Shown in pieces: positions 6,963-54,149 of a stretch of 64,000 nt of DNA. The stretch covers positions 96,846,001 through 96,910,000 of the forward strand of contig NC_086107.1 in assembly GCF_963921235.1 (NCBI RefSeq), given 5' to 3'. Every line of letters begins with the position of its first letter. The first letter of the stretch is position 1. A model generated the notes under the pieces. The model searched no databases. It was not told where the DNA came from and saw only the letters and a list, made by a program, of their open reading frames with translations. The position numbers and the translations under genes are program-made. The stretch is from Mobula hypostoma (lineage: Eukaryota).

Positions 6963-7159
6963 TAGAAGTCTTAATTTTATGTACTGCACTACGGCTGTAG
7001 CAAAAAAAAAACAAATTTCAAGATGTGAGTGATGATAAATCTGATTCTGATTTGGGTCTGTATTGTGGACTGAGAGTGGGAAGGGGGCAGGGAGAGGGGA
7101 TTCATGGTTGGGAAGGGAGAGGGGAGGGAGTGGGAAGCACCAGAGAGACATTCTGTAAT

Positions 7160-9958
7160 GGCTCCAGGGTGACCAGGGATGGGAGCTCAACATTCAGGGA
7201 TATTCAATATTCAGGAGGGATAGACATGAAGGAAGGGGAGGTGGGGTGGCGTTGCTGGTTAAAGAAGAGATTAGCGCAATAGAAAGGAAGGACATAAGCC
7301 GGGAAGATGTGGAATCGATATGGGTAGAGCTGCGTAACACTAAGGGGCAGAAGACGCTGGTGGGAGTTGTGTACAGGCCACCTAACAGTAGTAGTGAGGT
7401 CGGAGATGGTATTAAACAGGAAATTAGAAATGTGTGCAATAAAGGAATAGCAGTTATAATGGGTGACTTCAATCTACATGTAGATTGGGTGAACCAAATT
7501 GGTAAAGGTGCTGAGGAAGAGGATTTCTTGGAATGTATGCGGGATGGTTTTTTAAACCAACATATCGAGGAACCAACTGGAGAGCAGGCTATTCTGGACT
7601 GGGTTTTGAGCAATGAGGAAGGGTTAATTAGCGATCTTGTCATGAGAGGCCCCTTGGGTAAGAGTGACCATAATATGGTGGAATTCTTCATTAAGATGGA
7701 GAGTGACATAATTAATTCAGAAACAAAGGTTCTGAACTTAAAGTGGGGTAACTTTGAAGGTATGAAACGTGAATTAGCTAAGATAGACTGGCAAATGACA
7801 CTTAAAGGATTGACGGTGGATATGCAATGGCAAGCATTTAAAGGTTGCATGGATGAACTACAACAATTGTTCATCCCAGTTTGGCAAAAGAATAAATCAA
7901 GGAAGGTAGTGCACCCGTGGCTGACAACAGAAATTAGGGATAGTATCAATTCCAAAGAAGAAGCATACAAATTAGCCAGAGAAAGTGGCTCACCTGAGGA
8001 CTGGGAGAAATTCAGAGTTCAGCAGAGGAGGACAAAGGGCTTAATTAGGAAGGGGAAAAAAGATTATGAGGGAAAACTGGCAGGGAACATAAAAACAGAC
8101 TGTAAAAGCTTTTATAGATATGTAAAAAGGAAAAGACTGGTAAAGACAAATGTAGGTCCCCTGCAGACAGAAACAGGTGAATTGATTATGGGGAGCAAGG
8201 ACATGGCAGACCAATTGAATAACTACTTTGGTTCTGTCTTCACTAAGGAGGACATAAATAATCTTCCAGAAATAGTAAGGGACAGAGGGTCCAGTGAGAT
8301 GGAGGAACTGAGCGAAATACATGTTAGTAGGGAAGTGGTGTTGGGTAAATTGAAGGGATTGAAGGCAGATAAATCCCCAGGGCCAGATGGTCTGCATCCT
8401 AGAGTGCTTAAAGAAGTAGCCCAAGAAATAGTGGATGCATTAGTGATAATTTTTCAAAACTCGTTAGATTCTGGACTAGTTCCTGAGGATTGAAGGGTGG
8501 CTAATGTAACCCCACTTTTTAAAAAAGGAGGGAGAGAGAAACCGGGGAATTATAGACCGGTTAGCCTAACGTCGGTGGTGGGGAAACTGCTGGAGTCAGT
8601 TATCAAGGATGTGATAACAGCACATTTGGAAAGCGGTGAAATGATCGGACAAAGTCAGCATGGATTTGTGAAAGGAAAATCATGTCTGACGAATCTCATA
8701 GAATTTTTTGAGGATGTAACTAGTAGAATGGATAGGGGAGAACCAGTGGATGTGGTATATTTGGATTTTCAAAAGGCTTTTGACAAGGTCCCACACAGGA
8801 GATTAGTGTGCAAACTTAAAGCACACGGTATTGGGGGTAAGGTATTGGTGTGGGTGGAGAATTGGTTAGCAGACAGGAAGCAAAGAGTGGGAATAAACGG
8901 GACCTTTTCAGAATGGCAGGCGGTGACTAGTGGGATACCGCAAGGCTCAGTGCTGGGACCCCAGTTGTTTACAATATATATTAATGACTTGGATGAGGGA
9001 ATTGAATGCAGCATCTCCAAGTTTGTGGATGACACGAAGCTGGGTGGCAGTGTTAGCTGTGAGGAGGATGCTAAGAGGATGCAGGGTGACTTGGATAGGT
9101 TGGATGAGTGGGCAAATTCATGGCAGGTGCAATTTAATGTGGATAAATGTGAAGTTATCCACTTTGGTGGCAAAAATAGGAAAACAGATTATTATCTGAA
9201 TGGTGGCCGATTAGGAAAAGGGGAGGTGCAACGAGACCTGGGTGTCATTATACACCAGTCATTGAAAGTGGGCATGCAGGTACAGCAGGCGGTGAAAAAG
9301 GTGAATGGTATGCTGGCATTTATAGCGAGAGGATTCGAGTACAGGAGCAGGGAGGTACTACTGCAGTTGTACAAGGCCTTGGTGAGACCACACCTGGAGT
9401 ATTGTGTGCAGTTTTGGTCCCCTAATCTGAGGAAAGACATCCTTGCCATAGAGGGAGTACAAAGAAGGTTCACCAGATTGATTCCTGGGATGGCAGGACT
9501 TTCATATGAAGAAAGACTGGATGAACTGGGCTTGTACTCGTTGGAATTTAGAAGATTGAGGGGGGATCTGATTGAAACGTATAAAATCCTAAAGGGATTG
9601 GACAGGCTAGATGCAGGAAGATTGTTCCCGATGTTGGGGAAGTCCAGAATGAGGGGCCACAGTTTGAGGATAGAGGGGAAGCCTTTTAGGACCGAGATTA
9701 GGAAAAACTTCTTCACACAGAGAGTGGTGAATCTGTGGAATTCTCTGCCACAGGAAACAGTTGAGGCCAGTTCATTGGCTATATTTAAGAGGGAGTTAGA
9801 TATGGCCCTTGTGGCTACGGGGGTCAGGGGGTATGGAGGGAAGGCTGGGGTGGGGTTCTGAGTTGGATGATCAGCCATGATCATAATAAATGGCGGTGCA
9901 GGCTCGAAGGGCCGAATGGCCTACTCCTGCACCTATTTTCTATGTTTCTATGTTTCTA
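7160..9958 (+). mobile_element. Young 5'-truncated CR1 LINE (ORF2 with one nonsense codon)
   Basis: ORFs 7246-8493 and 8497-9861 are in the same frame, split by TGA in EDW*RV; EN and RT motifs; (TATGTTTC)n tail. Confidence 0.95.
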
Positions 9959-13514: not shown

Positions 13515-13672
13515 CAGACCACCATATACAGCGACCATCATTGTAGCGGCCATCGTCGGAGTGGACTGAGTTAGAGTGGGACGGCTTTGGCTCAACAGGC
13601 TTCGTCGAGAACAGGCAGAGGTCAGGGTAGGTTCCGGTAAGTTTTTTGTTCAGATTGTTTAGAGTTGAGAGA

Positions 13673-14595
13673 ATGCCAGGCAGGATGTTGGAATGCTCCT
13701 TTTGCAGGATATGGGAAGTCAGGGAGCCCTCCGGTGTCCCTGACAACGACTCCTGCAGGAAGTACATCCAGCTGCAGCTCCTAACAAACCGCGTTAGGGA
13801 ACCGGAGCAGGAGCTGGATGACCTGCAGATCATTCGGGAGAATGAAGAGATTATAGATAGTAGCTACAGGGAGACAGTTACGCTAAAGGAGCAGAGGACA
13901 GGAAATTGGGTCACTGTCAGGCGAGGGAAGAGGAAAGGGCAGGCAGAGCAGGGTTCCCCTGTGGCCATTCCCCTCAACAACAAGTATACCGCATTGGATA
14001 CTGTTGCGGGGGATGACTTACCTGGGACAAGCTGCAGTAGCCGGATCTCTGGTACTGAGTCTGGCTCTGCAGTGCAGAAGGGAGGGTGGAAAAAGAGGAG
14101 AGCGGTAGTGATAGGGGACTTGATAGTTAGAGGTTCTGTGGTCGTGACAGAGAATCCAGGATGGTTTGTTGCCTCCCGGGTGCCAGGGTCAAGGATGTCT
14201 CTGAGCGCTTGCATGACATTCTGAAGTGGGAGGGTGATCAGCCAGATGTCGTGGTGCACATCGGTACCAATGACATAGCAAGGAAGAGTGAGGAGGTCCT
14301 GGAGAATGAGTATAGAGAGCTTGGTAGGAAGTTGAAAAGCAGGACCTCGGGGGTGGTAATCTCAGGATTGCTACCTGTGCTACGTGCCAGTGAGGGTAAG
14401 AATAGGATGCTCTGGAGGATGAACAAGTGGCTGAGGAACTGGTGTAGGGGGCAGGGTTTCAGATTTCAGGATCATTGGGACCTCTTCTGGGGCAGGTGGG
14501 ACCTGTACAAGAGAGATGGGTTACACTTGAACTACAGGGGGACCAATATCCTTTCAGGGAGGTTTGTTAGTGCTATTGGGGAGGCTTTAAACTAG
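13673..14595 (+). pseudogene. CR1 ORF1 (zinc finger/leucine zipper plus SGNH esterase-like domain), frameshifted near 14130
   Basis: MPGRMLECSFCRIWEV...; VVIGDLIVRG (GDS motif mutated); HIGTND and DGLHLN blocks in the second frame. Confidence 0.85.
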
Positions 14596-17524
14596 ATTTG
14601 CAGGGGGATGGGAACCAGAGTGCCAGAGCTGACAGTGTGGCTGGGGTGAAAATAAATGATGTTAAAAGTTCAAGCAAATCCGCTAATAGAAAGGTTGTGA
14701 GTGGTGGTAAAAATCTTCTGAGGTGTATATATTTCAATGCGAGGAGTATTGCGGGGAAGGCGGATGAGTTGAGGGTGTGGATTGACATGTGGAATTATGA
14801 CGTTATAGCAATTAGTGAAACTTGGCTACAGAAGGGGCAGGACTGGCAGCTTAATATTCCAGGGTTCCGATGTTTCAGATGTGATAGAGGCAGAGGAATG
14901 AAAGGTGGGGGGGGGGGAGCATTGCTTGTTAGGGAAAATATTACAGCAGTGCTCAGGCAGGACAGATTAGAGGGCTTGTCTACTGAGTCCTTATGGCTGG
15001 AGCTGAGAAACAGGAAAGGTATGGCCACATTAGTGGGGTTGTATTACAGACCACCCAATAGTCAACGAGAATTGGAAGAGCAAATCTGCAGAGAGATAGC
15101 AGGCAACTGCAGGAAACATGAAGTTGTGGCGGTAGGGGATTTTAATTTTCCATATATTGATTGGGACTCCCATACTGTTAGGGGTCTAGATGGTTTAGAG
15201 TTTGTAAAATGTGTTCAGGGAAGTTTTCTAAATCAATATATAGAGGGACCAACTAGAGGGGATGCAATATTAGATCTCCTATTAGGAAACGAGTCAGGAC
15301 AAGTGATGGAAGTCTGTGTAGGGGAGCACTTTGGTTCCAGTGATCATAACACCATTAGTTTCAACTTGATCATGGACAAGGATAGATCTGGTCCTAGGGT
15401 TGAGGTTCTGAACTGGAAGAAGGCCAAATTTGAAGAAATGAGAAAGGATCTAAAAAGCGTGGATTGGGACAGGTTGTTCTCTGGCAAAGATGTGATTGGT
15501 AGGTGGGAAGCCTTCAAAGGAGACATTTTGAGAGTGCCGAGTTTGTATGTTCCTGTCAGGATTAAAGGCAAAGTGAATAGGAATAAGGAACCTTGGTTCT
15601 CAAGGGAGATTGCAACTCTGATAAAGAAGAAGAGAGAGTTGTATGACATGTATAGGAAACAGGGAGTAAATAAGGTGCTTGAGGAGTATAAGAAGTGCAA
15701 GAAAATACTTAAGAAAGAAATCAGGAGGGCTAAAAGAAGACATGAGGTTGCCTTGGCAGTCAAAGTGAAGGATAATCCAAAGAGCTTTTACAGGTATATT
15801 AAGAGCAAAAGGATTGTAAGGGATAAACTTGGTCCTCTTGAAGATCAGAGTGGTCGGCTATGTGTGGAACCAAAGGAAATGGGGGAGATCTTAAATAGGT
15901 TTTTTGCGTCTGTATTTACTAAGGAAACTGGCATGAAATCTATGGAATTAAGGGAAACAAGTAGTGAGATCATGGAAACTGTACAGATTGAAAAGGAGGA
16001 GGTGCTTGCTGTCTTGAGGAAAATTAAAGTGGATAAATCCCCGGGACCTGACAGGGTGTTCCCTCGGACCTTGAAGGAGACTAGTGTTGAAATTGCAGGG
16101 GCCCTGGCAGAAATATTTAAAATGTCGCTGTCTACAGGTGAGGTGCTGGAGGATTGGAGAGTGGCTCATGTTGTACCGTTGTTTAAAAAAGGATCGAAAA
16201 GTAATCCGGGAAATTATAGGCCGATAAGTTTAACATCGGTGGTGGGTAAGTTATTGGAGGGAGTACTAAGAGACAGAATCTACAAGCGTTTGGATAGACT
16301 GGGACTTATTAGGGAGAGTCAACATGGCTTTGTGCATGGTAGGTCATGTTTGACCAATCTACTGGAGTTTTTCGAGGAGGTTACCAGGAAAGTGGATGAA
16401 GGGAAGGCAGTGGATGTTGTCTACATGGACTTCAGTAAGGCCTTTGACAAGGTCCCGCATGGGAGGTTAGTTAGGAAAGTTCAGTCGCTAGGTATACATG
16501 GAGAGGTGGTAAATTGGATTAGACATTGGCTCAATGGAAGAAGCCAAAGAGTGGTAGTAGAGAATTGCTTCTCAGAGTGGAGGCCTGTGACTAGTGGTGT
16601 GCCACAGGGATCAGTGCTGGGTCCATTGTTACTTGTCATCTATATCAATGATCTGGATGATAATGTGGTAAATTGGATCAGCAAGTTTGCTGATGATACA
16701 AAGATTGGAGGTGTAGTAGACAGTGAGGAAGGTTTTCAGAGCCTCCAGAGGGACTTGGACCAGCTGGAAAAATGGGCTGAAAAATGGCAGATGGAATTTA
16801 ATACAGACGAGTGTGAGGTATTGCACGTTGGAAGGATAAACCAAGGTAGAACATACAGAGTTAATGGTAAGGCACTGAGGAGTGCAGTGGAACAGAGGGA
16901 TCTGGGAATACAGATACAAAATTCCCTAAAAGTGGCGTCACAGGTAGATAGGGTCATAAAGAGAGCTTTTGGTACATTGGCCTTTATTAACCAAAGTATT
17001 GAGTATAAGAGCTGGAATGTTATGATGAGGTTGTAAAAGGCATTGGTGAGGCCGAATCTGGAGTGTTGTATTCAGTTTTGGTCACCAAATTACAGGAAGG
17101 ATATAAATAAGGTTGAAAGAGTGCAGAGAAGGTTTACAAGGATGTTGCCGGGACTTGAGAAACTCAGTTACAGAGAAAGGTTGAATAGGTTAGGACTTTA
17201 TTCCCTGGAGCGTAGAAGAATGAGGGGAGATTTGATACAGGTATTTAAAATATGATGGGTATAGATAGAGTGAATGCAAGCAGGCTTTTTCCACTGAGGC
17301 AAGGGGAGAAAAAAACCAGAGGACATGGGTTAAGGGTGAGGGGGGAAAAGTTTAAAGGGAACATTGGGGGGACTTCTTCACACAGAGAGTGGTGGGAGTA
17401 TGGAATGAGCTGCCAGACGAGGTGGTAAATGCGGTTTTTTTTAACATTTAAGAATAAATTGGACAGATACATGGATAGGAGGTGTATGGAGGGATATGGT
17501 CCGTGTGCAGGTCAGTGGGACTAG
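14586..17524 (+). pseudogene. CR1 ORF2 (endonuclease-reverse transcriptase), open for 812 codons, then a premature stop at 17034-17036 and a frameshift near 17250
   Basis: Motifs YFNARS, ISETWL, GDFN, SDH, NYRPISLTS, DFSKAFDKV, FADD. Confidence 0.92.
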
Positions 17525-36729: not shown

Positions 36730-38048
36730 TCACCTTTCAGCATACGGATCTGGCCTTGTCAGCGCCTTACAGACAACTGTCTCTACACTTGTACTGACTT
36801 CTCTTGCAATAAACACTAACACCCCATTTTCCTTCTTGACTGCTTGCTGTACCTGGATGTTAACTTCCAAATGATTTGCGGGCAAGGGCACCCGTGTCTC
36901 TGTGAACATCAACACTTTCTAATCTCGCTCCTTTAAAAAAAAGTCATAGAGTCACAGAAAAGTACAGCAGAGCAATGCGCCCTTTGGCCCATCTAGTCCA
37001 TGCTGAAACCATTTAAACTGCCTACTCCCATCAACCTGCACCAGGACCATAGGCCTCCATATCCCTACCATCCATGTTCCTATCCAAACTCCTCTTAAAC
37101 ATTGAAGTCGAGCTCGCACGCACCACTTCTGCTGGCAGCTCAGTCCACACTCTACGACCCTCAGTGAATAGAATTCTCCTCATGTTCCCCTTAAAACTTT
37201 TCACTTTTCACTTCAGCCCATGACCTCTGGTTGTAGCCCCACCTAATCTCAGTGGAAAAAGCCTGCTTGCATTTACCCTATCCATACGTTCATCATTTTG
37301 TATACCTCTATCAAACCTCCTCTCAATTTTCTGCATTCCAAGGAATAAAGTCCTAACCTATTCAATCTTTCCTTATAACTTAGGTCCTCCAGACCCAGCA
37401 ACATTGTTGTAAATTTTCCCTGTATCCTTTCAACCTTATTTATATCTTTCCTGTAGAAACTCCAGTAAATACTCCACTTTATAAAAGAAACTCGACTAAG
37501 GTGGATGACCTCCTGTTTTTCCACATCATATTCTATCTGCCATGTCCTTGCCCTTACACATAACCTGTCCATATCTCCCTTAAGCCCCACTGTATATCCA
37601 CACAGCCCATATTGTCACCTAAACTTGAATATACTGTATTTAGCACGTTCCCCTTGTCTGAGTCAGTGATGTGCTTTGTGAAGAGTTGGGGTTCCTGTAC
37701 TTGAAGTACATAAAAGTGGACAGATACTTAGGACCTGATGAAATGCATCCTATGCTGCTATGGGAAGGAACAGAGGAGATAGCTGGGGCAGTGAAAGAGA
37801 TTTGTGCATCTTCTCTGGTCTCAAGGGACCAGAAGACTGGAGAATAGTTAATGTTGTCCCATTATTTACGAAGGGCAGTGGGAACAAGCCAGGTATTGAC
37901 AGACCAGTGAGTCTTCAATCAGTGGTAAGGAAATAACTGGAAAAAAATTCCCAAGAACAGGATTTATTTACACTTGAAAAGGCACACAAAGAGTGGAGAT
38001 AATCAGCTTGGAGTGGAGATAATCATGTGAAATCTTGTCTCACCAATT
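36730..38048. mobile_element. Cluster of CR1 fragments (minus 36730-37620 with a nested copy at ~36945-37460; plus 37700-38048)
   Basis: LGLYSLECRKLRGGLIE on minus; remnants of GPDEMHP and RPVSL on plus. Confidence 0.75.
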
Positions 38049-40019: not shown

Positions 40020-43000
40020 ATGGGTACTGCAATAAGCAACACTGTTTTAAGATGTTTAAGAAATTCTATGGATACCCAAAATCAATGAACCTTGAAATGG
40101 CAGACTCGGGCTGCGAATGGTGTTCACCGTTAAGAAAACATAAATAGGGATGACGTGCCGGTCTGTAAATACAATTGAAATGCAGTGGCTTTAGATCCCC
40201 AATCCTGACTATCCTGTTGGTGAATGTACAGTCTCTAGAAAATAAAATGGAAGTCCTCAGAGCAAGATTGCTGAACCAGAGAGATATTAAGGACTGGTGT
40301 GTACTTTGCTTCATGGAAACGTGGCTATCTTCATCCATTTCAGATGCAGCACTGCAGCTCGATGGCTTCATGGTTCTCTGCAAGGATAGGAAAGCTGAGA
40401 TTTTTAAAGGCAGAGTTGGTGGAGAATGCTTTATGATTAACTCATCGTAGTGACCAAATGTAGCTATTCTGTCTCAGTCTTGCTCACATAACCTGGTACA
40501 TCTAGCAGTCAAATGTCATCATTTTGTCTGCCGAGGGGATTTTCCACCATCATCCTGGTAGCAGTGTACATTCCAAAGTCAGACAGGCACTGGAGGAACT
40601 GAGCAATGTAAACAGTAGGCACAAAACTGTGCACCCTATCATTACGGGAGATTTCAACCAGGTCAGCTCGAAGAAGTCTCTGAACAACTACCACCAACAT
40701 ATCACCTATGGAACCAGAGGAGCCAACACACTTGACCACTGTTATACCCCCATCAAGTACATGTACTATACCATCCCACCCCACACTTTTGGAAGTCTGA
40801 TCGTCTGGCTGTACTTCTACACCCAGTAATAGGTAGAGGCTAAAGGCTGTAACATCAGTGGTGAGGACCAAGAAGGTATGGTCAAGGGAGGCAGAGGAAC
40901 GCTTACAGGAGTGCTTTAAGTCAGTGGTCTGGACAATATTCAGGAATCCATCTACAAGTCTGAATGAATTTGTCACAGTTCTCACTGATTTCAACAAGAT
41001 CTGTGTAGGTGAGTGTGTTCCGAGAACATATCAGACATATACAAACCAAAAGCTGTGGATGAACCAGGAAATTTGTGGTCTGCTGAGGGCTAGATCTGTG
41101 GCATTCAAGACTGGTGATGCAGAACTATACAAGAAGTCCAAGTACAATCTACTGAAGGCTATTTTAAGGGCAAAAAAAAACAATTTTGATTGAGACGGAA
41201 TTGGATGTACAACAGCTCTGGCTGGGTTTGCGGGCCATTATCTCCTACAAAGCTGTGATACTTCACTCCCAGATGAGCTCAACGCCTTTTACAATTGCCT
41301 TGAAATGGAGAATAAAACTACCAGCGAGAATCCCTGCAGCATCTGGTCACCCTGTGATCTCAGTTTTGGAGGCCAAAGTCAGAACTTTATTCAAGAGGGT
41401 GAATCCATGCAAGGCGTAAGGCCCTGATGTGTACCTGGTGGGAACTGAAAACCAAGTTCAAAGTAAATTTTATTATCAGAGTACATACGTGCCACCGCAT
41501 AAAACCCTGAGATTCCTTTTTCCTGTGGGCATACTCAGCAAATCTATAGAATGGTAACTGTAAACAGGATCAATGAAAGATCAAGAAGAGTGCAGAAGTC
41601 AACAAACTGTGCAAATGCAAATATAAATAAATGCCAATAAATAATGAGAACATGAAATGACAAAATAAAGAGTCTTTAAAGTTAGATCTTTGGCGTGGGA
41701 ACCAAGAATGGACAGGTGAGTGTAGTAATGACCTTTCATTCAAGACCCTGATGGTTGAGGGGTAGGTGACGGTTCTTGAACTTGGTGGTGCGAGTCCTGC
41801 ACCAACTGATGGGAGTGTTCAAGGACATCTTCAATCTCTCACTGCTGTTGTCGGAGGGTCCCACCTGATTCAAAAGGGTGGCAATCTTGCCAGTGCCCCA
41901 GAAGAGCAGGATGAGCTGCCTCAATGACTGTCACCCAGTGGCATTCACATCCACTGTGACGAAGTGCTTTCAGAGTTTGGTCCTGGCTAGCACGGACTCC
42001 GGACTAAGCAAGAATTGGATCCACTGTAATTGGCTTATTGCCACAATCGTTCTGCGATGGATACAAATTTACTGGCTCTCCACGCGGCCTTGGATCACCT
42101 GGACAATAGCAATACCTACGTGAGGCTGATGTTTATTGACTACAGCTCAGCGTTCAACGCAATCATACTCCCAGTTCGGATCACTGGGATCCGAAACCTG
42201 GACCTCTGTACCTCCCTCTGCAACTGGATCCTTCACTTCCTCACCAGGAGCCCACAGTCTGTGTTAATTGGAAATTAACACCTACTCTCCCTACATCCAC
42301 AACTCTGTGGCTAGGCACAGCTCAAATGCCATCTATAAATTTGCGGACAACACGAATATTGTTGGCAGGGTTTCAGATGGTGACGAGGAGGCGTAAAGGA
42401 GTGAGATAGATCAGCTAGTTGTGTGGTGTGACAACAACAGCCTTACATTCAGTGTCATTAAGACCAAGAAATTGATTGTGGACATCAGGAAGGGGAAGTC
42501 GAGGGAACACACCAGTCCTCATTGAGGAATTAGCAGTGGAAAATGTGAGTAGTTTCATGCTCCTGGGTGATAATATCTTTGATGTCCCATCCTAGGCCCA
42601 ATATATCGACACAATTACAAAGAAGGCACAACGGTAGCTATATATCGTTAGGACTTGAGGAGATTTAGTGTGTCACTAAAGACGCTTGCAAATTTCTACA
42701 TGGGTACCATGGGAGCATTTTTACTGGTTGCATCACTGTCTGGTATGGAGGGGTCACTGCAGTGTATTGGAAAAAAGCAGCAGAAACTTCCAGCTCCACC
42801 ATGGGTACTAGCATCCCCAGCATTGCAGGACACCTTCAATAGGCGATGACTCAAAAAGGCAGCATCCATCATTAAGGACCCTCATCACCCTAAGACTACC
42901 ATCCTCTCATTGCTACCATCAAGGAGGTACAGGAGCCTGAAGACACACAGCGATTCAGGAACAGCTTCATCCCCTCTACCATCAGATTTCTGAAGAGACA

Positions 43001-44005: not shown

Positions 44006-45523
44006 GTAAGTTCTGCTGATTACAGATACATTGAAATCAGTTGGGCTGAGTGGTACCCTGGTAATCAGGGAACCATGATAGAGTAATGGGTTGGTCAATG
44101 AATTGCCTTTATTTCAAAACTGTTGTATTTGTGACAATGGCTTCAAAACTTTCTCCAATGTGTTTGTTCTCATTCATTTAAGTATTTCCTGATTTCATTT
44201 GAAGTGGCCCAGCTATTTAGGACTTTGTACTCTTGTTCTGGACTTTTCAGCATATCAGTGCCTCTTACCTTATGTAATTCTTTTGACACTTAAACAAGTT
44301 GATTAGGTTTCCAAAGTAAAAACTGCAAGTGTTGGAAGTAAAACAGGATATGCTAGACGAGGTAACAGTTCAGGTTCTTTGTCAGAACTGGAACTAAGAA
44401 GACATTTTTTGTTTTCAGTAACATTTATTTATTGAGATACAGCATGGAACAGGCCCTTTCAGCCATGCCACCCAGCAACCTCTGATTCTAAGTTACCACA
44501 GATCAATTTACAATGACCAATTAACTTACCAAACAGTATGTCTTTGACCAGCGGCCAATCTGGATATTGGAAGTTGGATACTTCAATCAGGTCCACTGCC
44601 TGAGAATAAAAGGCAGGGATAGGTCATGACAGTGTAATAGTGCTTTGACCAGCGACCAGCGGTGTTTGGGATTGATTAGTAAGAGCAAATAAAAGGAAGG
44701 CAGAGGCAAATGCAACGGCCGTTGTCTGGACTGCCAGAGTGGTGATCTTAAGGTGTTAGCTCTTCAAGGTTTCAGTTAAGAGTGGCTTCACTTAGAGAAA
44801 GCAAAGTAAAGAAAACCTCAATTTTTTTCCCTTCTGTATATCTGCTGAGCTAGGATAGTAGAAATGACAGCCAGGGCAGTGAAATGTTGTTCTTGCAGGA
44901 TGTTGGAAGGCAGGGATACCGCCAGTCCCTGACGATTACAACTGTGAGAAGTGCATCCAGCTGCAGCTTCTAGCAAACCGCATTAAGGAGTTGGAGCTAG
45001 AGCTGGATTATTCAGGAGTCTGAGGAGGTGATAGATAGGCCATATAGAGAGGTAGTTACACCCAAGGTGACAGTTGTGAAGGGGAAAGGGGTTAAGGAGC
45101 TAGTGTACAGTACCCTTGTGGTCGTCCCCCTCAGCAATAAGTATATCACTTTAGATACTGTTGAGGGGTGATGACCTAACCAGAGGAAAGTCACAATGGT
45201 TGGGTCTCTACCACTAAGCATGTCTCAGTAATTCAGAGGGAAGTGGGGAGAAAAGGCATGCTGGGTGATCAGGGATTCATTAGGGGAATGAGCAAGAGGT
45301 TCTGTGGGCGAGAACAAGGTTCCCGGATGGTCGAGTCCTCAGGATTCTTAATTAGGAAGGTGAACAGCCAGGAGTTGTGGTCCATGTAGTTAGGATAGGG
45401 AGTTCATGGAGTTAGGTGCTAAGATAAAAGGCAGGACTTCCATGGTTGTGATTTCACTCATGCCACGTGCTAGTGAGGCTAGAACTAGGAAGATTATACA
45501 GTTTAATATCTGGCTAATATGTT

Positions 45524-45830
45524 GGTGCGTGGCCAAGTGGTTAAGGCATTCGTCTAGTGATTTGAAGGTCGCTAGTTTGAGCCTTGGCTGAGGCAGCATG
45601 TGTGTCCTTGAGCAAGGCACTTAACTACACATTGCTCTGCGATGACACCGGTGCCAAGCTGTATGGGTCTGAATGTCTTTCCCTTGGACAACATCGGTGG
45701 CGTGGAGAGGGGAGACTTGCAGCATGGGCAACTGCTGGTCTTCCATACAACCTTGCCCAGGCCTGCGCCCTGGAAACCTTCCAAGGCACAAATCCATGGT
45801 CTCATGAGACTAACGGATGCCTATAAATAA
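45524..45830 (+). mobile_element. tRNA-derived SINE with a CORE-like motif, inserted in CR1 ORF1
   Basis: A box tggccaagtgg; motif gtgtccttgagcaaggcacttaac; flanking gttggtg duplication. Confidence 0.8.
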
Positions 45831-47272
45831 GTAGTTGGTGTACGAGGGAGGGCATAAGATTTTTGGATCATTGTGTTCTCTTCCAGGGATACAGAGGGCC
45901 AGTTTGTACCTGAACTGGAGGGGGACTAATATCCTTGCAGGAAGGTTTGTTACTGCTGCATGGTGGGGTTTAACCTGGAGTTCCAGCGGAATGGGAGCCA
46001 GAGTGCCAGAGCAATCAGTGGGGAGTTTGTGGAGGCAGATGTTGGTAAGATCTCAGACAAAGTAAGGAAGCAAAAGGTTCAGCATGGACCAACTAGTGTC
46101 CTGAGCTGCAAGAAGTATTGTAGGAAACATGAATAATAGTGCTGAAGATGGGGTAGCTGGTTTACAAATGGGCAACCCGTAGTGAGGAGAGGCTGTTGAT
46201 AGGACAAAATTGGAGACAATTGAAGGAGTTGCAACATTAAAGTGGACAAAATCGAAAAGGGTGAATATAGGACTGAAGGTGTTGGATTGGTAGATGAACT
46301 TGCAGCACAGTTGCAGATTGACAGGTATGATATTGGCATCACTGAATCATGGCAGAAAGATTATAGCTGGGAGCTTAATGTCCAAGGATACACATTGTAT
46401 CAAAAGGATAGGCAGGAAGGCAGGGGGCGCGGCATTGCTCTGTTAATAAAAGATGAAATCGGGGAAAAAAAGAGGTGATATAGGGTCACAAGATGTTGAA
46501 TCATTGTGGATAGAGCTAAGGAACTTCAAGGGTAAAAAGACACTGATGTGAACTGTATACAGACCCCCAAACAATAGTAAGGATGTGGCCTATAAATTAC
46601 AACAGGAGGTTGAAAATGCATGCCAAAAAGGCAATGTTGCAATAGTCTTGGTGGACTTTAATATGCATGTTGATTGGGGAAAATCAGGTTGGTGCTGGAT
46701 TACAGGAGGGGGAATTTCTAGAGTGCCTACGAGATGGCTTTTTCAAGCAGTTTATGGTTGAGCCCAGCTATTGTGGACTGGGTGTTGTGTAATGAACCAG
46801 AATTGATTAGAGAGCTTAAGGTAAAAGAACCCTCAGGGGAAAGTGGTCATAATATGATTGAATTCACCCCGAAATCTGAGAAGGGGAAACTAAAGTCAGA
46901 TGTATCAGTGTTACAGTGGAGTAAAGGGAATTACAGAGGCATGAGAGAGGAGTTGGCCAGAATTGATTGGAAAAGAACACTGGCAGGGATGATGGCAGAG
47001 CAGCAGAGGTTGGAATTTCTGGAAGTAATTTGGCAGGCACAGGATATATACATTCCAAAGAGGAAGTAGTCTAAAGGAAAGGTGACATAACTGACTAACA
47101 AGAGAAGTCAAAGCCAACATAAAAGGGGAAATGAGGGCATATAATGGAGCAAAAATTAGGTGCAAGTTAGAGGATTGGGAAACTTAAAAACCAACAGAAG
47201 GCAACTAAAAAAAAAATCATTAAGAAGGTAAAGATGGAGCACGAGAATAAGACACTTAATAATATTAAAGAG

Positions 47273-47555
47273 TGTGGCGCGTGGCCAAGTGGTTAGGGTG
47301 TTGGGGTCACGATCTGAAGGTCGTGGGTTCGACTCTTGGCCAGGGCAGCGTGTTGTGTCTTTGAGCAAGGCACATAACCACACACCGCTCCAGTCCACCC
47401 AGCTGAAAATGGGTACTGGCGAATGCTGGGGGTTAACTGACGTCCTATCCCGGGGGGGGGGCGGGGGAAGTCTCGTACTCAGTCATTTCACGCCACAGAA
47501 ACCGGCATAAGCACTGGCCTGATGGGCCACAAAGGCTCGGGACAGACTTTGACTA
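47273..47555 (+). mobile_element. tRNA-derived SINE with a CORE-like motif, inserted in CR1 ORF2
   Basis: A box tggccaagtgg, B box ggttcgactct, gtgtctttgagcaaggcacataacc; target-site duplication attaaagag on both sides. Confidence 0.85.
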
Positions 47556-49404
47556 AAATTAAAGAGGATACCTAAAGTTTCTTCAGATACATATACATAA
47601 AGTGTAAAAGACACTTACACATAAAGTGTATTGGACCACTGGAAAACTATGTTGGAGAGGTAACAATGGAAAACTTCACTGTGGAAGACACTAGCAGTAT
47701 GGTGGAAGTTCTACGTGTCAGAGGCGTGAAGTGTGTGAAGTTACTATAACTAGAGAAAAGGTTCTTGGGGAAACTGAAAGTTCTGACGGTAGATAAGTTA
47801 CCTGGACCAGATGATGTGCATCCCAGAGTTCTGTGGAAGGTGGCTGAATAGATTGTGGGGGTGTTTGTAGTGATCTTTCAAGAATCACTAGGTTATGGAA
47901 TGGTTCCAGAAGACTGTAAAATTGCAAATGTCACTTCACTGTTCAAGAAGGGAGGCAGAATAAAGGAAACTATAGGCCAGTTAGTCTGACTTCAGTGGTC
48001 AGGAAGATGTTGGAGTCGATTGTTAAGAATGAGGTCTCATTGGAGGCACATGATAAAATTGGCTGTAGTCAGGCATGGTTTCCTCAAGGGAAAATGTTGC
48101 CTGATAAATCTGTTGGAATTCTTTGAAGAAGTAACAAGCAGGATAGACAAAGGAGAATCGGTTGATATGTACTTGGATTTTCAGAATGTCTTTGACAAGG
48201 TGCCACACATGAGACTGCTTAACAAGCTATGAGCCTGTGGAATTACAGGAAAGATTCCAGCATGGATAAAGCAGTGGCTAATTGGCAGGAGGCAAAGAGT
48301 GGGAATAAAGGGAGCCTTTCTGGCTAGCTGCTGGTGACTAGTGGTGTTCCACAGGGGTATGTGTTGGGACCAATTCTTTTTATCTTGTATGTCAGTGATT
48401 TGGATGATGGAATTGATAGCTTTGTTGTAAAGTTTACAGATGATATGAAGATAGATGGAAGGCAGGTAGTTTTGAGGAAGTAGAGAGGCTACAGAAGGAC
48501 TTGGATTAGGAGAATTGGCAAAGAAATAGCAGAAATAGTAGAAATAGTCAACTGATGCTGACTGACCTGCTGAGTTCCTCCAGCGCAATGTGAGTGTTCA
48601 GATGAAATAGTGTTGGGAAGTGTATGGTCATGCACTTTGGTAGAATAAGTGAAAGGGGTGACTATTTTCTATATGGAGGGAAAATTAAAAAAATAAATGG
48701 GGTGCAAAGGGATTTGGAAGTCCTTGTGCAGCTTTCCCTGAAGGTTAATTTGCACGGTTGCATCTGTGGTGAGGAGGGCAAATGTAATGCTGGCATTCAT
48801 TTCAAGGGGACTAGAATATAAAAGCAAGGGTGTAATGTTGAGACTTTACAAAGCACTGTTGAGGCCTCACAGAGTACTGTGAGCAGTTTTTGGCCCCTTA
48901 TCTTAGAAAGAATGTGCTGAAACCAGAGAGGGTTCAAAGGAGGTTCACAAAAATGATTTCAGGATTGAATGGCTTGTCATATGAAGATAGTCTGATGACT
49001 GGGCCTGTATTCGCTGGAATTCTGAAGAAAGAGGAGTGACCTCATTTAAACCTATGGAATGGTGGAAGGCCTTAAAAAGAGTGGATGTGGAGAGGATGTT
49101 TCATATGGTGGGAGAGTCTAAGACCAAAGGACACAGCCTTAGAATAGAGGGATGTCCTTTGAGAATGGAGGTGAGAAGTTTCTTTAGCTATGATGGTGAA
49201 TCTGTGGAATTCTTTGCCACAGGCAGCTGTGGAGGCCAAGTCTTTATGTATATTTAAGGCAGAGGTTGATGGATACTTGTTGGTCAGGGCATGAAGGGAT
49301 ATGAGCAGAAGGTAAGAGATTGGACTGAGAGAAAATTAGATCAACCATGATGAAATGGCAGAGCAGATTTGATGGGCCAAAATTCTGCTCCTGTATATTA
49401 TGGT

Positions 49405-53095: not shown

Positions 53096-54149
53096 CTTCA
53101 TTTTTACCCAGCGAGTGGCATGTACCTGGAACATACTAATCTGATGAATGGTGGAAACAGAACTGTACAGCATTTACATTTCGAGACAAATACTTGTACA
53201 GAAGGCTACAAGTCAATGGAAGATAGGATTAATACAGATGAGTGCTCACTGGTTGATGAGATTGTGGTGGGTTGAAAGGCCTGTTTCCATGCTGATTGAC
53301 TCCAAGTCAAATAGGGATTGATTAGTGTGGTTGAGCAAAAACAGGATGGATATGGTGAGCTGAAGGGCCAGTCTTCGACTTTGCTGGTGCATTTAGAAAT
53401 AATTGGCATCAAGGCTCCTCTGCTCCTCAATTACAGCTTTAGGAACCAAGCTTTCATTATGTATATCCTAGCTGAATGCATCATCTTGCACTCATCAGGA
53501 TTAACTGCCATCTACCATTGCTGTCCCTGATGTATATTCCTGGCCATGTTGTGAGTCAGTCCAGGGCGGAGCTTGGGAATATACTTTTGGTCTCTTTGGC
53601 TTACTTAGATTGGCAGTCACATATGACTTAATTGTAGCTGTGCCCAGGGAATTTGCCTAATTTAGTAATCTTTTACAGAGAATTAATAACAAGAAATGGC
53701 AGATAAGCTGAATCAATACTCTGTGTCAGTCATCATGATAGAGGACACTGCAGACATTCCAAAGGTTTCTGATGAGCTGATTTCAATCACAGTAGAAGAA
53801 CTTGCAGCAATTATTACCATGTGGGATAACAATAGAGAAGGTAATTGGACTAAAAGTAGACAAGTCACCTTGTCCCCAGGGTCTGCACCTGACTGTTTTA
53901 AAGGAAGTGGCTGCAGAGATACTGGAGCTATTGGATGAGATTTTACAAAATTTGCCAAGTTCTGGGAAGATACCAACAGACTGGAAAACTTACTATTGCG
54001 TAAGCAAAGAAGACCAAAAATGGGTAACCATTGGCCTATTAGGTTAATATCTATTGGAAGGATGCTGGAGTCTATAATCAACCGGATATGGATAGTTTGA
54101 GTGAGTGGGCAAAACCTTGGCAAGTGAAGTTTAATGTGGGGTGGGGAAG

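Follow-up and report, generated by a model that had tools for sequence, protein, structure and literature searches.

The junction between the two open reading frames (ORF1 and ORF2) of a CR1-type long interspersed nuclear element (LINE) in the ray Mobula hypostoma is probably a conserved programmed -1 ribosomal frameshift cassette, from which an ORF1-ORF2 fusion protein would be made. The cassette consists of the slippery heptamer T_TTA_AAC, an ORF1 stop codon directly abutting it, and a G tract at a fixed distance downstream; the copy described here lies in a 64,000-nt stretch of the 3.48-Gb M. hypostoma assembly, called the window throughout. Judged by comparison of families and lineages, the cassette is conserved and not a product of chance. 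The comparisons support a probable -1 frameshift cassette, marked by an abutting stop and a G-tract element, which esterase-type CR1-group LINEs have in common and of which the M. hypostoma genome holds over 20,000 copies. A preliminary description of the window had proposed frameshifting for this one CR1 lineage; the comparative evidence supports the proposal for ORF2 but finds that scope too narrow, as the cassette spans distant relatives. The slipping itself, and its efficiency, are what we infer.

Anatomy of the junction

ORF1 ends GAG GCT TTA AAC TAG (14581-14595), as read from the window sequence, which puts the heptamer in X_XXY_YYZ phase in the 0 frame, and the -1 frame is open into the downstream ORF, which carries both the endonuclease and the reverse transcriptase (Table 1). 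The ORF listing likewise bears out the upstream closure of that frame and the short overlap that had been described, 25 nt in the window copy. No in-frame AUG precedes the endonuclease domain: the first one in the window copy follows the YFNARS motif (ORF2-frame codons 54-59) and lies within the Pfam span of the endonuclease, and in a second family of the genome (family 3, below) there is none for 122 codons. The in-phase heptamer at the ORF1/ORF2 junction is thus confirmed as an observation. Its presence in a single copy proves little, because the computed chance of a canonical heptamer in phase inside a 25-nt overlap is about 3%; the argument has to come from relatives.

Table 1. Features of the CR1 element and its ORF1/ORF2 junction in the window
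Feature	Position	Strand	Remarks
ORF1 of the CR1 element: N-terminal Cys motifs, coiled-coil-like stretch, C-terminal SGNH/GDSL esterase	13673..14595	+	ORF frames, Pfam
TAG closing the ORF2 (-1) frame	14568..14570	+	15 nt upstream of the heptamer
ORF2 open frame, 821 codons	14571..17036	+	ORF listing; cut short at 17036 in the window copy
Slippery heptamer T_TTA_AAC	14586..14592	+	X_XXY_YYZ phase with ORF1; letters read directly
Block of nucleotide-level conservation between CR1 families, 52 nt	14586..14637	+	family comparison and contig fits
ORF1 stop TAG	14593..14595	+	directly abuts the heptamer; -1 frame reads CTA G...
Spacer, 10 nt (stop codon + 7 nt)	14593..14602	+	letters vary between lineages, length does not
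G tract GGGGGATGGG	14603..14612	+	phased NNG GGG GNN in ORF2; conserved columns; candidate stimulator or binding site
First in-frame ATG of the ORF2 frame	14787..14789	+	codon 73, inside the endonuclease domain

Conservation at the DNA level

Four families of the M. hypostoma genome share a common cassette: NNT TTA AAC, a stop codon, a 10-nt spacer and G5. The junction of family 1, to which the window element belongs, has at least 5252 candidate copies in the assembly, and the 40 copies that were scored are 97-100% identical. Within a sample of 30 copies (window included), TTTAAAC is intact in 29, L026 having TTTAAAT instead, and the 12-mer GCTTTAAACTAG in 28, a degree of conservation that is uninformative on selection because the copies are too young (~2% diverged). 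Family 2, found at about 44925-48846 in the window, is an old element that has an ORF1/ORF2 junction too. Its alignment of 30 rows, 29 of them relatives at 77-82% identity, keeps TTTAAAC in 20 rows, TAG next to it in 17 and GGGGG ten bases on in 16, the others showing single decay changes. Families 1 and 2 are 88% identical over the 52 nt that start with the heptamer. Identity is lower on both sides: 72-75% over the preceding 52 nt, where conserved esterase residues are encoded, and 51-53% over the 52 nt that follow the block.

Contigs of four sequencing runs from four studies (one run recorded as RNA), compared at a likeness of at least 80%, agree with this 52-nt block: contigs of other families begin fitting exactly at 14586 and stop fitting at 14637. 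Among the 40 variant rows listed of 204 in these contigs, there are rows at 14554, 14556, 14567, 14630 and 14633, no variant or indel within 14568-14629, which is a weak negative given the share of rows listed, and no insertion or deletion touching the heptamer. An RNA-level insertion or deletion as a way of joining the two frames finds no support in the run contigs.

The 5'-truncated element at 7159-9369 in the window (ORF2 47% identical) represents family 3, a young family with copies 98-99% identical. Five of six stretches read ACT TTA AAC TAG, 7 nt, GGGGGG T GGG, and the 122 codons of the -1 frame that lead from the heptamer into the endonuclease motifs include no Met (a stop occurs in one of four copies). 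Family 4 was found by a genome search with the distant ORF1 protein P0153; 14 of its 20 copies read GGT TTA AAC TAA, then TTTGGCA, then GGGGGATGGG. Genome-wide, the pattern TTTAAAC-TRR-N7-GGGGG yields 11,354 + 11,436 = 22,790 matches, against 8 + 8 = 16 for the reversed control, and the first 100 places listed have many different spacers and all three stop codons.

In family 3 (L106-L111) another G-rich module, CAGGGGGATGGGAACCAG, stands some 55 nt past the first G tract and downstream of family 3's own GGGGGGTGGG; it is nearly identical to the family 1 module and looks duplicated. L106 (positions 139-165) contains CTTTAAACTAG twice, 17 nt apart, at an apparent 5' rearrangement. The family 4 copy L118 is missing heptamer and stop, and its ORF1 is fused in frame to ORF2 (..FNRAVKLIWQGDGNQ..).

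Beyond the ray genome, a search with the intact ORF1 protein gave 90 homologues, whose named sources are rays, skates, sharks, two frogs, two lizards and a turtle. Almost all of the complete proteins have x-Leu-Asn at the C-terminus, which suggests the same heptamer behind the proteins from rays, frogs, lizards and the turtle. (Some ORF1-like proteins, P0013, P0075, P0028, P0064, P0065 and P0087, carry unrelated public names: a Pseudomonas aeruginosa hydrolase, a flatworm protein, ribosomal protein S24 isoform X2, transmembrane protein 204 isoforms and a BRMS1-like isoform. Such records probably reflect contamination or gene models into which a LINE ORF1 was drawn.)

Metagenome contigs, scanned with alignment A1 of 31 ORF1 homologues, supplied distant relatives as DNA. 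Of 45 loci, 30 were examined, and eight of these (L061, L064, L065, L067, L069, L070, L075 and L086) encode an ORF1 that is 30-43% identical to the query and has a clean Leu-Asn end. Seven of the eight read NNT TTA AAC followed by TAG or TAA. The eighth, L061, reads TCG TTA AAC TAG, i.e. G_UUA_AAC, which a section of a frameshifting review gives as the site of equine arteritis virus (PMC5009743). Three degenerate copies (L062, L082 and L090) retain CTTTAAAC and a G run, with TGA as the stop in L082; the remaining 19 loci are unrelated hydrolases or break off short of the ORF1 terminus. Where the sequence continues (L061, L064, L069, L070 and L086), the -1 frame leads from the heptamer straight into the endonuclease, and in six of the eight loci that frame is closed 3-15 nt upstream of the heptamer. 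The ORF1 stop may be TAG, TAA or TGA, always at the same place after the heptamer. In the distant lineages the rest of the 52-nt block diverges, while heptamer, stop, spacer length and G5 tract survive. Heptamer and phase are conserved, then, in four genome families, with eight DNA-level lineages in all, and the cassette looks ancestral to the esterase-type CR1-group ORF1s. The frameshift proposal thereby survives both sequence-level checks named in the preliminary description, on an AUG ahead of the endonuclease and on the constancy of heptamer and phase.

Codon control at the end of ORF1

One explanation for an unchanging TTA AAC would be a protein-level need for a C-terminal Leu-Asn, or a coincidence inherited by young copies. 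The residues are indeed well kept (across the ORF1 alignment N311 never varies, and L310 is conserved to 90% or more), and copies within the window family differ by only ~2%. At 30-43% protein identity, on the other hand, synonymous sites should be scrambled, and lineages that far apart keep the same letters. We compared the last 33 ORF1 codons in 16 copies from eight lineages. The terminal Leu is TTA and the terminal Asn AAC in 16/16 rows, and the base before them is T in 15/16 rows and 7/8 lineages, although it occupies a wobble position of the preceding codon. In the same rows, the conserved Leu of the D-G-x-H-L motif some 22 codons upstream is TTG, CTG, CTA or CTT, and the conserved Leu positions other than the terminal one use five different codons between them. 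These elements use TTA for 11-15% of Leu, AAC for 33-48% of Asn and T at 30-32% of fourfold third positions, so that the chance of the TTA/AAC/T pattern is about 0.05 per lineage. With lineages treated as independent this becomes 3e-11 for eight lineages and 6e-6 for four, figures that overstate independence because the lineages share descent and that count for less on this account. The heptamer is in fact conserved at synonymous sites among its relatives, and a purely protein-level constraint is rejected by the codon control; we regard this explanation, coincidence included, as extremely improbable.

The G tract tells a similar story. It is phased NNG GGG GNN, and since one conserved Gly cannot account for five invariant G's, it is the RNA that is constrained. 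Because heptamer and stop are conserved together as one block, the phase of the heptamer is not independent evidence. Independent evidence for reading this putative site as slippery is the codon control together with a rule on the X position, which emerges from the ORF1 proteins.

C-terminal endings of ORF1 proteins

An A1 profile search of 1.84 billion representatives returned 11,052 proteins at E <= 0.001, of which the best 150 of the 11,052 were used. The pooled ORF1 set comprises 264 proteins, 167 of them matching to the end of both profile and protein; thinning to <70% identity over the last 60 residues leaves a non-redundant set of n = 84 (Table 2).

Table 2. C-terminal endings of ORF1 proteins
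Ending	All	Non-redundant
xLN	99/167	39/84
xGN	27/167	12/84
SKN	5/167	2/84
FF(x)	7/167	5/84
FL(x)	2/167	2/84
other, with final N	4/167	3/84
other	23/167	21/84

The dipeptides LN, GN and KN occupy 0.9% of positions inside the proteins, which serves as background. Endings in xLN, xGN and SKN match U_UUA_AAC, G_GGA_AAC and A_AAA_AAC, the pattern to be expected if the end of ORF1 were held to X_XXA_AAC with any X. A passage of the frameshifting review counts these same three sites among the shiftiest for mammalian ribosomes (PMC5009743).

The residue before the dipeptide should then be encoded by a codon ending in X. Residues that have no NNU codon (K, E, Q, M and W) do not occur before LN in the non-redundant set (0/39; 1/99 in the full set; background 20%, P 1.5e-4), and Y, C, F, H or D stands there in 12 of 39. 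Before GN (12 non-redundant) the residue is Q in nine and S, V and A in one each, all of which can end in G and none of which is restricted to NNY codons. Before KN it is S, for which UCA is a possible codon. The contrast of NNY-only with NNR-only residues gives p 3.4e-6 by Fisher's exact test, a figure that shared descent makes optimistic.

Several distant homologues (P0084, P0085, P0182, P0256, P0259, P0260 and P0258) end ..FFR, ..GFLG or ..MFF. Endings of the FF(x) and FL(x) types would fit U_UUU_UUY and U_UUU_UUA, one codon before the stop.

The xGN and SKN types were also sought as DNA. Among 18 pattern matches in viral contigs and 64 in genome contigs there was no relative; the search of the M. 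hypostoma genome with P0153 found only an LN-type family (family 4); and the pattern CAGGGAAAC-TRR-N7-GGGGG had 3 matches, vs 4 for its control.

The downstream element

The universal features of the cassette are the heptamer, the abutting stop, the 10-nt spacer and a G5N2-3G3-4 tract. Counted from the heptamer, the G5 tract begins at 10 nt in 10 of 12 sequences and at 9 and 7 nt in one each. The preliminary description had put forward the G-rich tract as a candidate stimulator. The tract is the only other universally conserved feature, and it forms neither a predicted stem-loop nor a canonical G-quadruplex. G4Hunter maxima are borderline (1.12-1.64), and two-tier arrangements are possible in some sequences. 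The L064/L075 clade has a 6-7 bp hairpin, CCAGGC...GCCUGG, about 30 nt downstream of the heptamer, which is not the common element because the families of the M. hypostoma genome lack it.

That no stable downstream structure is predicted is one of several points that weigh against a programmed frameshift. The fold of 14586-14700 (115 nt) is no more stable than its shuffles (z = +1.44), and the same is true of eleven 68-nt folds from eleven sequences (z -0.68 to +1.25). RNAalifold predicts 0 pairs for the 12 sequences, an Rfam search of 14450-14800 finds no family, and a canonical G3x4 quadruplex is present in none of the 12. No stem-loop was found a short spacer downstream of the heptamer by tools that cover nested structure, pseudoknots lying outside their range. 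The usual spacing to structured -1 stimulators is 5-9 nt, and the 10-nt spacer is longer. The stop that always abuts the heptamer is not needed in classical -1 frameshifting and recalls termination-coupled mechanisms. An ATG stands 3-4 codons after the heptamer in L064, L069 and L086, and other sequences have TTG or GTG there. On the side of the proteins, 21 of the 84 non-redundant ORF1 ends fit no slippery pattern, and G_GGA_AAC and A_AAA_AAC are deduced behind the xGN and SKN ends from protein sequences.

According to a part of the frameshifting review, a minority of stimulators lie 12-15 nt 3' of the site and act with trans-acting factors (PMC5009743); these would be the nearest known parallel to an unstructured motif at 10 nt.

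Proposed frameshifting and its rivals

Under the frameshift reading, most ribosomes would read ...Ala-Leu-Asn, terminate at the abutting TAG and release the ORF1 protein (ORF1p). A minority would slip back one base by tandem slippage on X_XXA_AAC, in which tRNA-Leu shifts its pairing from UUA to UUU and tRNA-Asn its own from AAC to AAA. For these ribosomes the next codon would be CUA, in the -1 frame, and translation would go on through the endonuclease and reverse transcriptase. The product would be an ORF1-ORF2 fusion at a Gag-Pol-like ratio. The G5N2G3 tract 10 nt downstream would be part of the signal, through contact with a protein or the ribosome or as a weak G-quadruplex, and abutting stop and G tract together may raise or tune slippage. 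LINE ORF2 protein (ORF2p) is needed in very small amounts, and basal slippage on the heptamer could suffice for that reason.

The main rival is termination-coupled re-initiation, in which ribosomes would end ORF1, stay on the RNA and restart a few codons on in the ORF2 frame, at an AUG, a near-cognate codon or any codon. The conserved block would then be a retention signal, and ORF2p a separate protein. The stop at an identical place in every lineage is what such a mechanism would want, and UGGGA, part of the calicivirus re-initiation signals, occurs within the G tract of families 1, 3 and 4. Candidate start codons can be found shortly after the heptamer as well: besides the ATG of L064, L069 and L086 there is GTG in L065 and L067 and TTG in families 1 to 3, all of them within 3-5 codons downstream. 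At the same downstream site, though, family 4 and L075 have TGG, L070 has TCG and L061 has none of these; ATG is found in only 3 of 12 sequences, and there is thus no conserved start codon. The G tract, for its part, lies downstream of the stop. Precedents among LINEs, as portions of two papers describe them, are SART1 of Bombyx, whose ORF2 is made by UAAUG stop-start coupling (PMC3708506), and mammalian L1, for which re-initiation is proposed, with an AUG-independent ORF2 start (PMC5009743). The downstream structure of the SART1 type is not predicted here, either by RNAalifold or by single folds. Re-initiation also accounts neither for the synonymous-site fixation of TTA, AAC and the T before them nor for alternative ORF1 ends that match other slippery heptamers. 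We consider it possible, if unlikely.

The 52-nt block might also be kept for some other role of the RNA, such as binding of ORF1p or a host protein, packaging, or internal entry for ORF2, its slippery look being incidental. Conservation between families does extend well past the heptamer, the G tract is unpaired in most folds, and the four nearly invariant cysteines at the ORF1 N-terminus could bind nucleic acid. Against such a role, only heptamer, stop, spacer length and G5 survive in distant lineages, and a sequence-specific site would not be expected to tolerate the change of UUU to GGG or AAA that the protein endings suggest. ORF2 must, moreover, be entered within a short window, because the -1 frame is closed 3-15 nt upstream in 6/8 loci. 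We judge this explanation to be very unlikely.

The frameshift reading can be extended to a stronger proposal: that ORF2 is expressed as an uncut fusion with ORF1 in every esterase-type CR1-group LINE, from sharks to reptiles, via one ancient stop-adjacent -1 cassette, that the heptamer has been swapped among U_UUA_AAC, G_GGA_AAC and A_AAA_AAC, and that the stimulator is no RNA fold but the linear G5N2G3 tract, bound by ORF1p or by a host G-tract protein. Taken as a whole this is distinctly unlikely. If it were true, the element would tune its own ORF1:ORF2 ratio, a cellular parallel to the protein-stimulated frameshifting seen in cardioviruses and arteriviruses.

Comparison with known systems

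The CR1 heptamer is identical to that of coronaviruses (U_UUA_AAC in infectious bronchitis virus), and the X_XXA_AAC sites of retroviruses and astroviruses have the same phase. At these viral sites, as proposed for CR1, an upstream structural or accessory ORF is joined to a downstream polymerase ORF in the -1 frame. The viral sites have a pseudoknot or stem-loop at short spacing (5-9 nt), whereas CR1 has no predicted structure and a G tract at 10 nt. CR1 differs further in having its 0-frame stop abut the heptamer, and in being a cellular LINE without a protease to cut the fusion.

PEG10, a retrotransposon-derived gene, uses G_GGA_AAC. In PEG10 and in the Gag-Pol of long terminal repeat (LTR) elements, slipping sets a fixed low ratio of enzyme to structural protein, and the structural part of the fusion brings the enzyme into the particle, both of which would hold for CR1 as proposed. 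Unlike these, CR1 is a non-LTR element with an esterase-type ORF1 and neither capsid nor protease, so that the fusion would stay uncut.

Cardiovirus 2A, and arterivirus nsp1-beta with poly(C)-binding protein, are protein-dependent frameshift stimulators placed further downstream. They resemble the CR1 tract in relying on a linear, unstructured motif beyond the usual spacing, with the difference that the CR1 motif is G-rich, lies at 10 nt and has a candidate partner only, whereas the motifs in those viruses are a C-rich stretch or a stem-loop.

Among non-LTR elements, -1 frameshifting was proposed earlier for jockey, R1Bm and Dictyostelium TRE5-A, on grounds not known to go beyond frame arrangement. 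As in CR1, their ORF2 overlaps ORF1 in the -1 frame; what sets CR1 apart is a canonical heptamer, stop and G tract conserved across distant lineages. SART1 and mammalian L1 share with CR1 the task of expressing ORF2 from a bicistronic LINE RNA, with the decisive events at or next to the ORF1 stop (PMC3708506, PMC5009743). They differ from CR1 in that CR1 has no conserved start codon and no predicted downstream structure, and has a slippery heptamer fixed at synonymous sites.

No link between CR1 and frameshifting or a slippery site was found in full-text searches of the literature; the classic CR1 papers (Haas 1997, Kajikawa 1997, Kapitonov and Jurka 2003) and Repbase lay outside that search and may note the overlap. 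A 2026 survey of vertebrate CR1-group elements makes no mention of frameshift, overlap, slippery site, reinitiation, stop codon or fusion (PMC13343379), and a paper on the ZfL2-1 esterase mentions neither frameshift nor overlap (PMC3905857). Of the non-LTR elements, the 2016 frameshifting review discusses HeT-A, TART and mammalian L1 (PMC5009743), and a 2013 paper states in one passage that the mechanism of LINE ORF2 translation is "not clear" (PMC3708506).

The element and its class

The CR1 label is that of the preliminary description and fits the domain set. ORF1 matches the Pfam esterase family PF13472 (E 1.4e-12), and ORF2 matches first the endonuclease PF03372, Exo_endo_phos (E 1.1e-12; codons 55-259, ~14733-15347), and then the reverse transcriptase PF00078 (E 4.1e-32; codons 542-758, ~16194-16844). 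An endonuclease followed by a reverse transcriptase, together with an SGNH/GDSL ORF1, places the element among the apurinic/apyrimidinic endonuclease (APE)-type LINEs with an esterase-type ORF1. The window copy is defective: ORF1 occupies two frames (13631-14224 and 14131-14595), changing from one to the other between 14131 and 14224, and ORF2 ends early. Copies L013 and L025 have an unbroken ORF1 frame of 325 codons; the L013 ORF1 is 311 aa long from its Met and has the C-terminus ..GEALN.

In alignment A1, C8, C11, C28 and C31 at the ORF1 N-terminus are nearly invariant and look like a zinc-binding module. This module is a candidate for the nucleic-acid-binding part of ORF1p and might contact the G tract.

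The window contains three larger CR1-like elements (7159-9369, 13673-17036 and 44925-48846), as well as further short CR1-ORF2-like fragments at 889-1072, 37701-38047, 42033-42275 and 53850-54002.

Significance

CR1-group elements are the dominant retrotransposons in most vertebrates, as the 2026 survey puts it in one part (PMC13343379). With its conserved canonical slippery site at the ORF1 stop, the CR1 junction offers a concrete and cheaply testable hypothesis for how ORF2 of a bicistronic LINE RNA is translated. In annotation, the cassette would explain why CR1 ORF2s seem to be without a start codon. The stimulator that is indicated would be an unusual one, with a stop abutting the site and a G tract at a fixed distance, and no predicted fold. 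If frameshifting does take place, tens of thousands of cassettes per genome would join the short list of vertebrate cases, and the resulting ORF1-ORF2 fusion protein would change the view of cis-preference and particle assembly in CR1-group elements.

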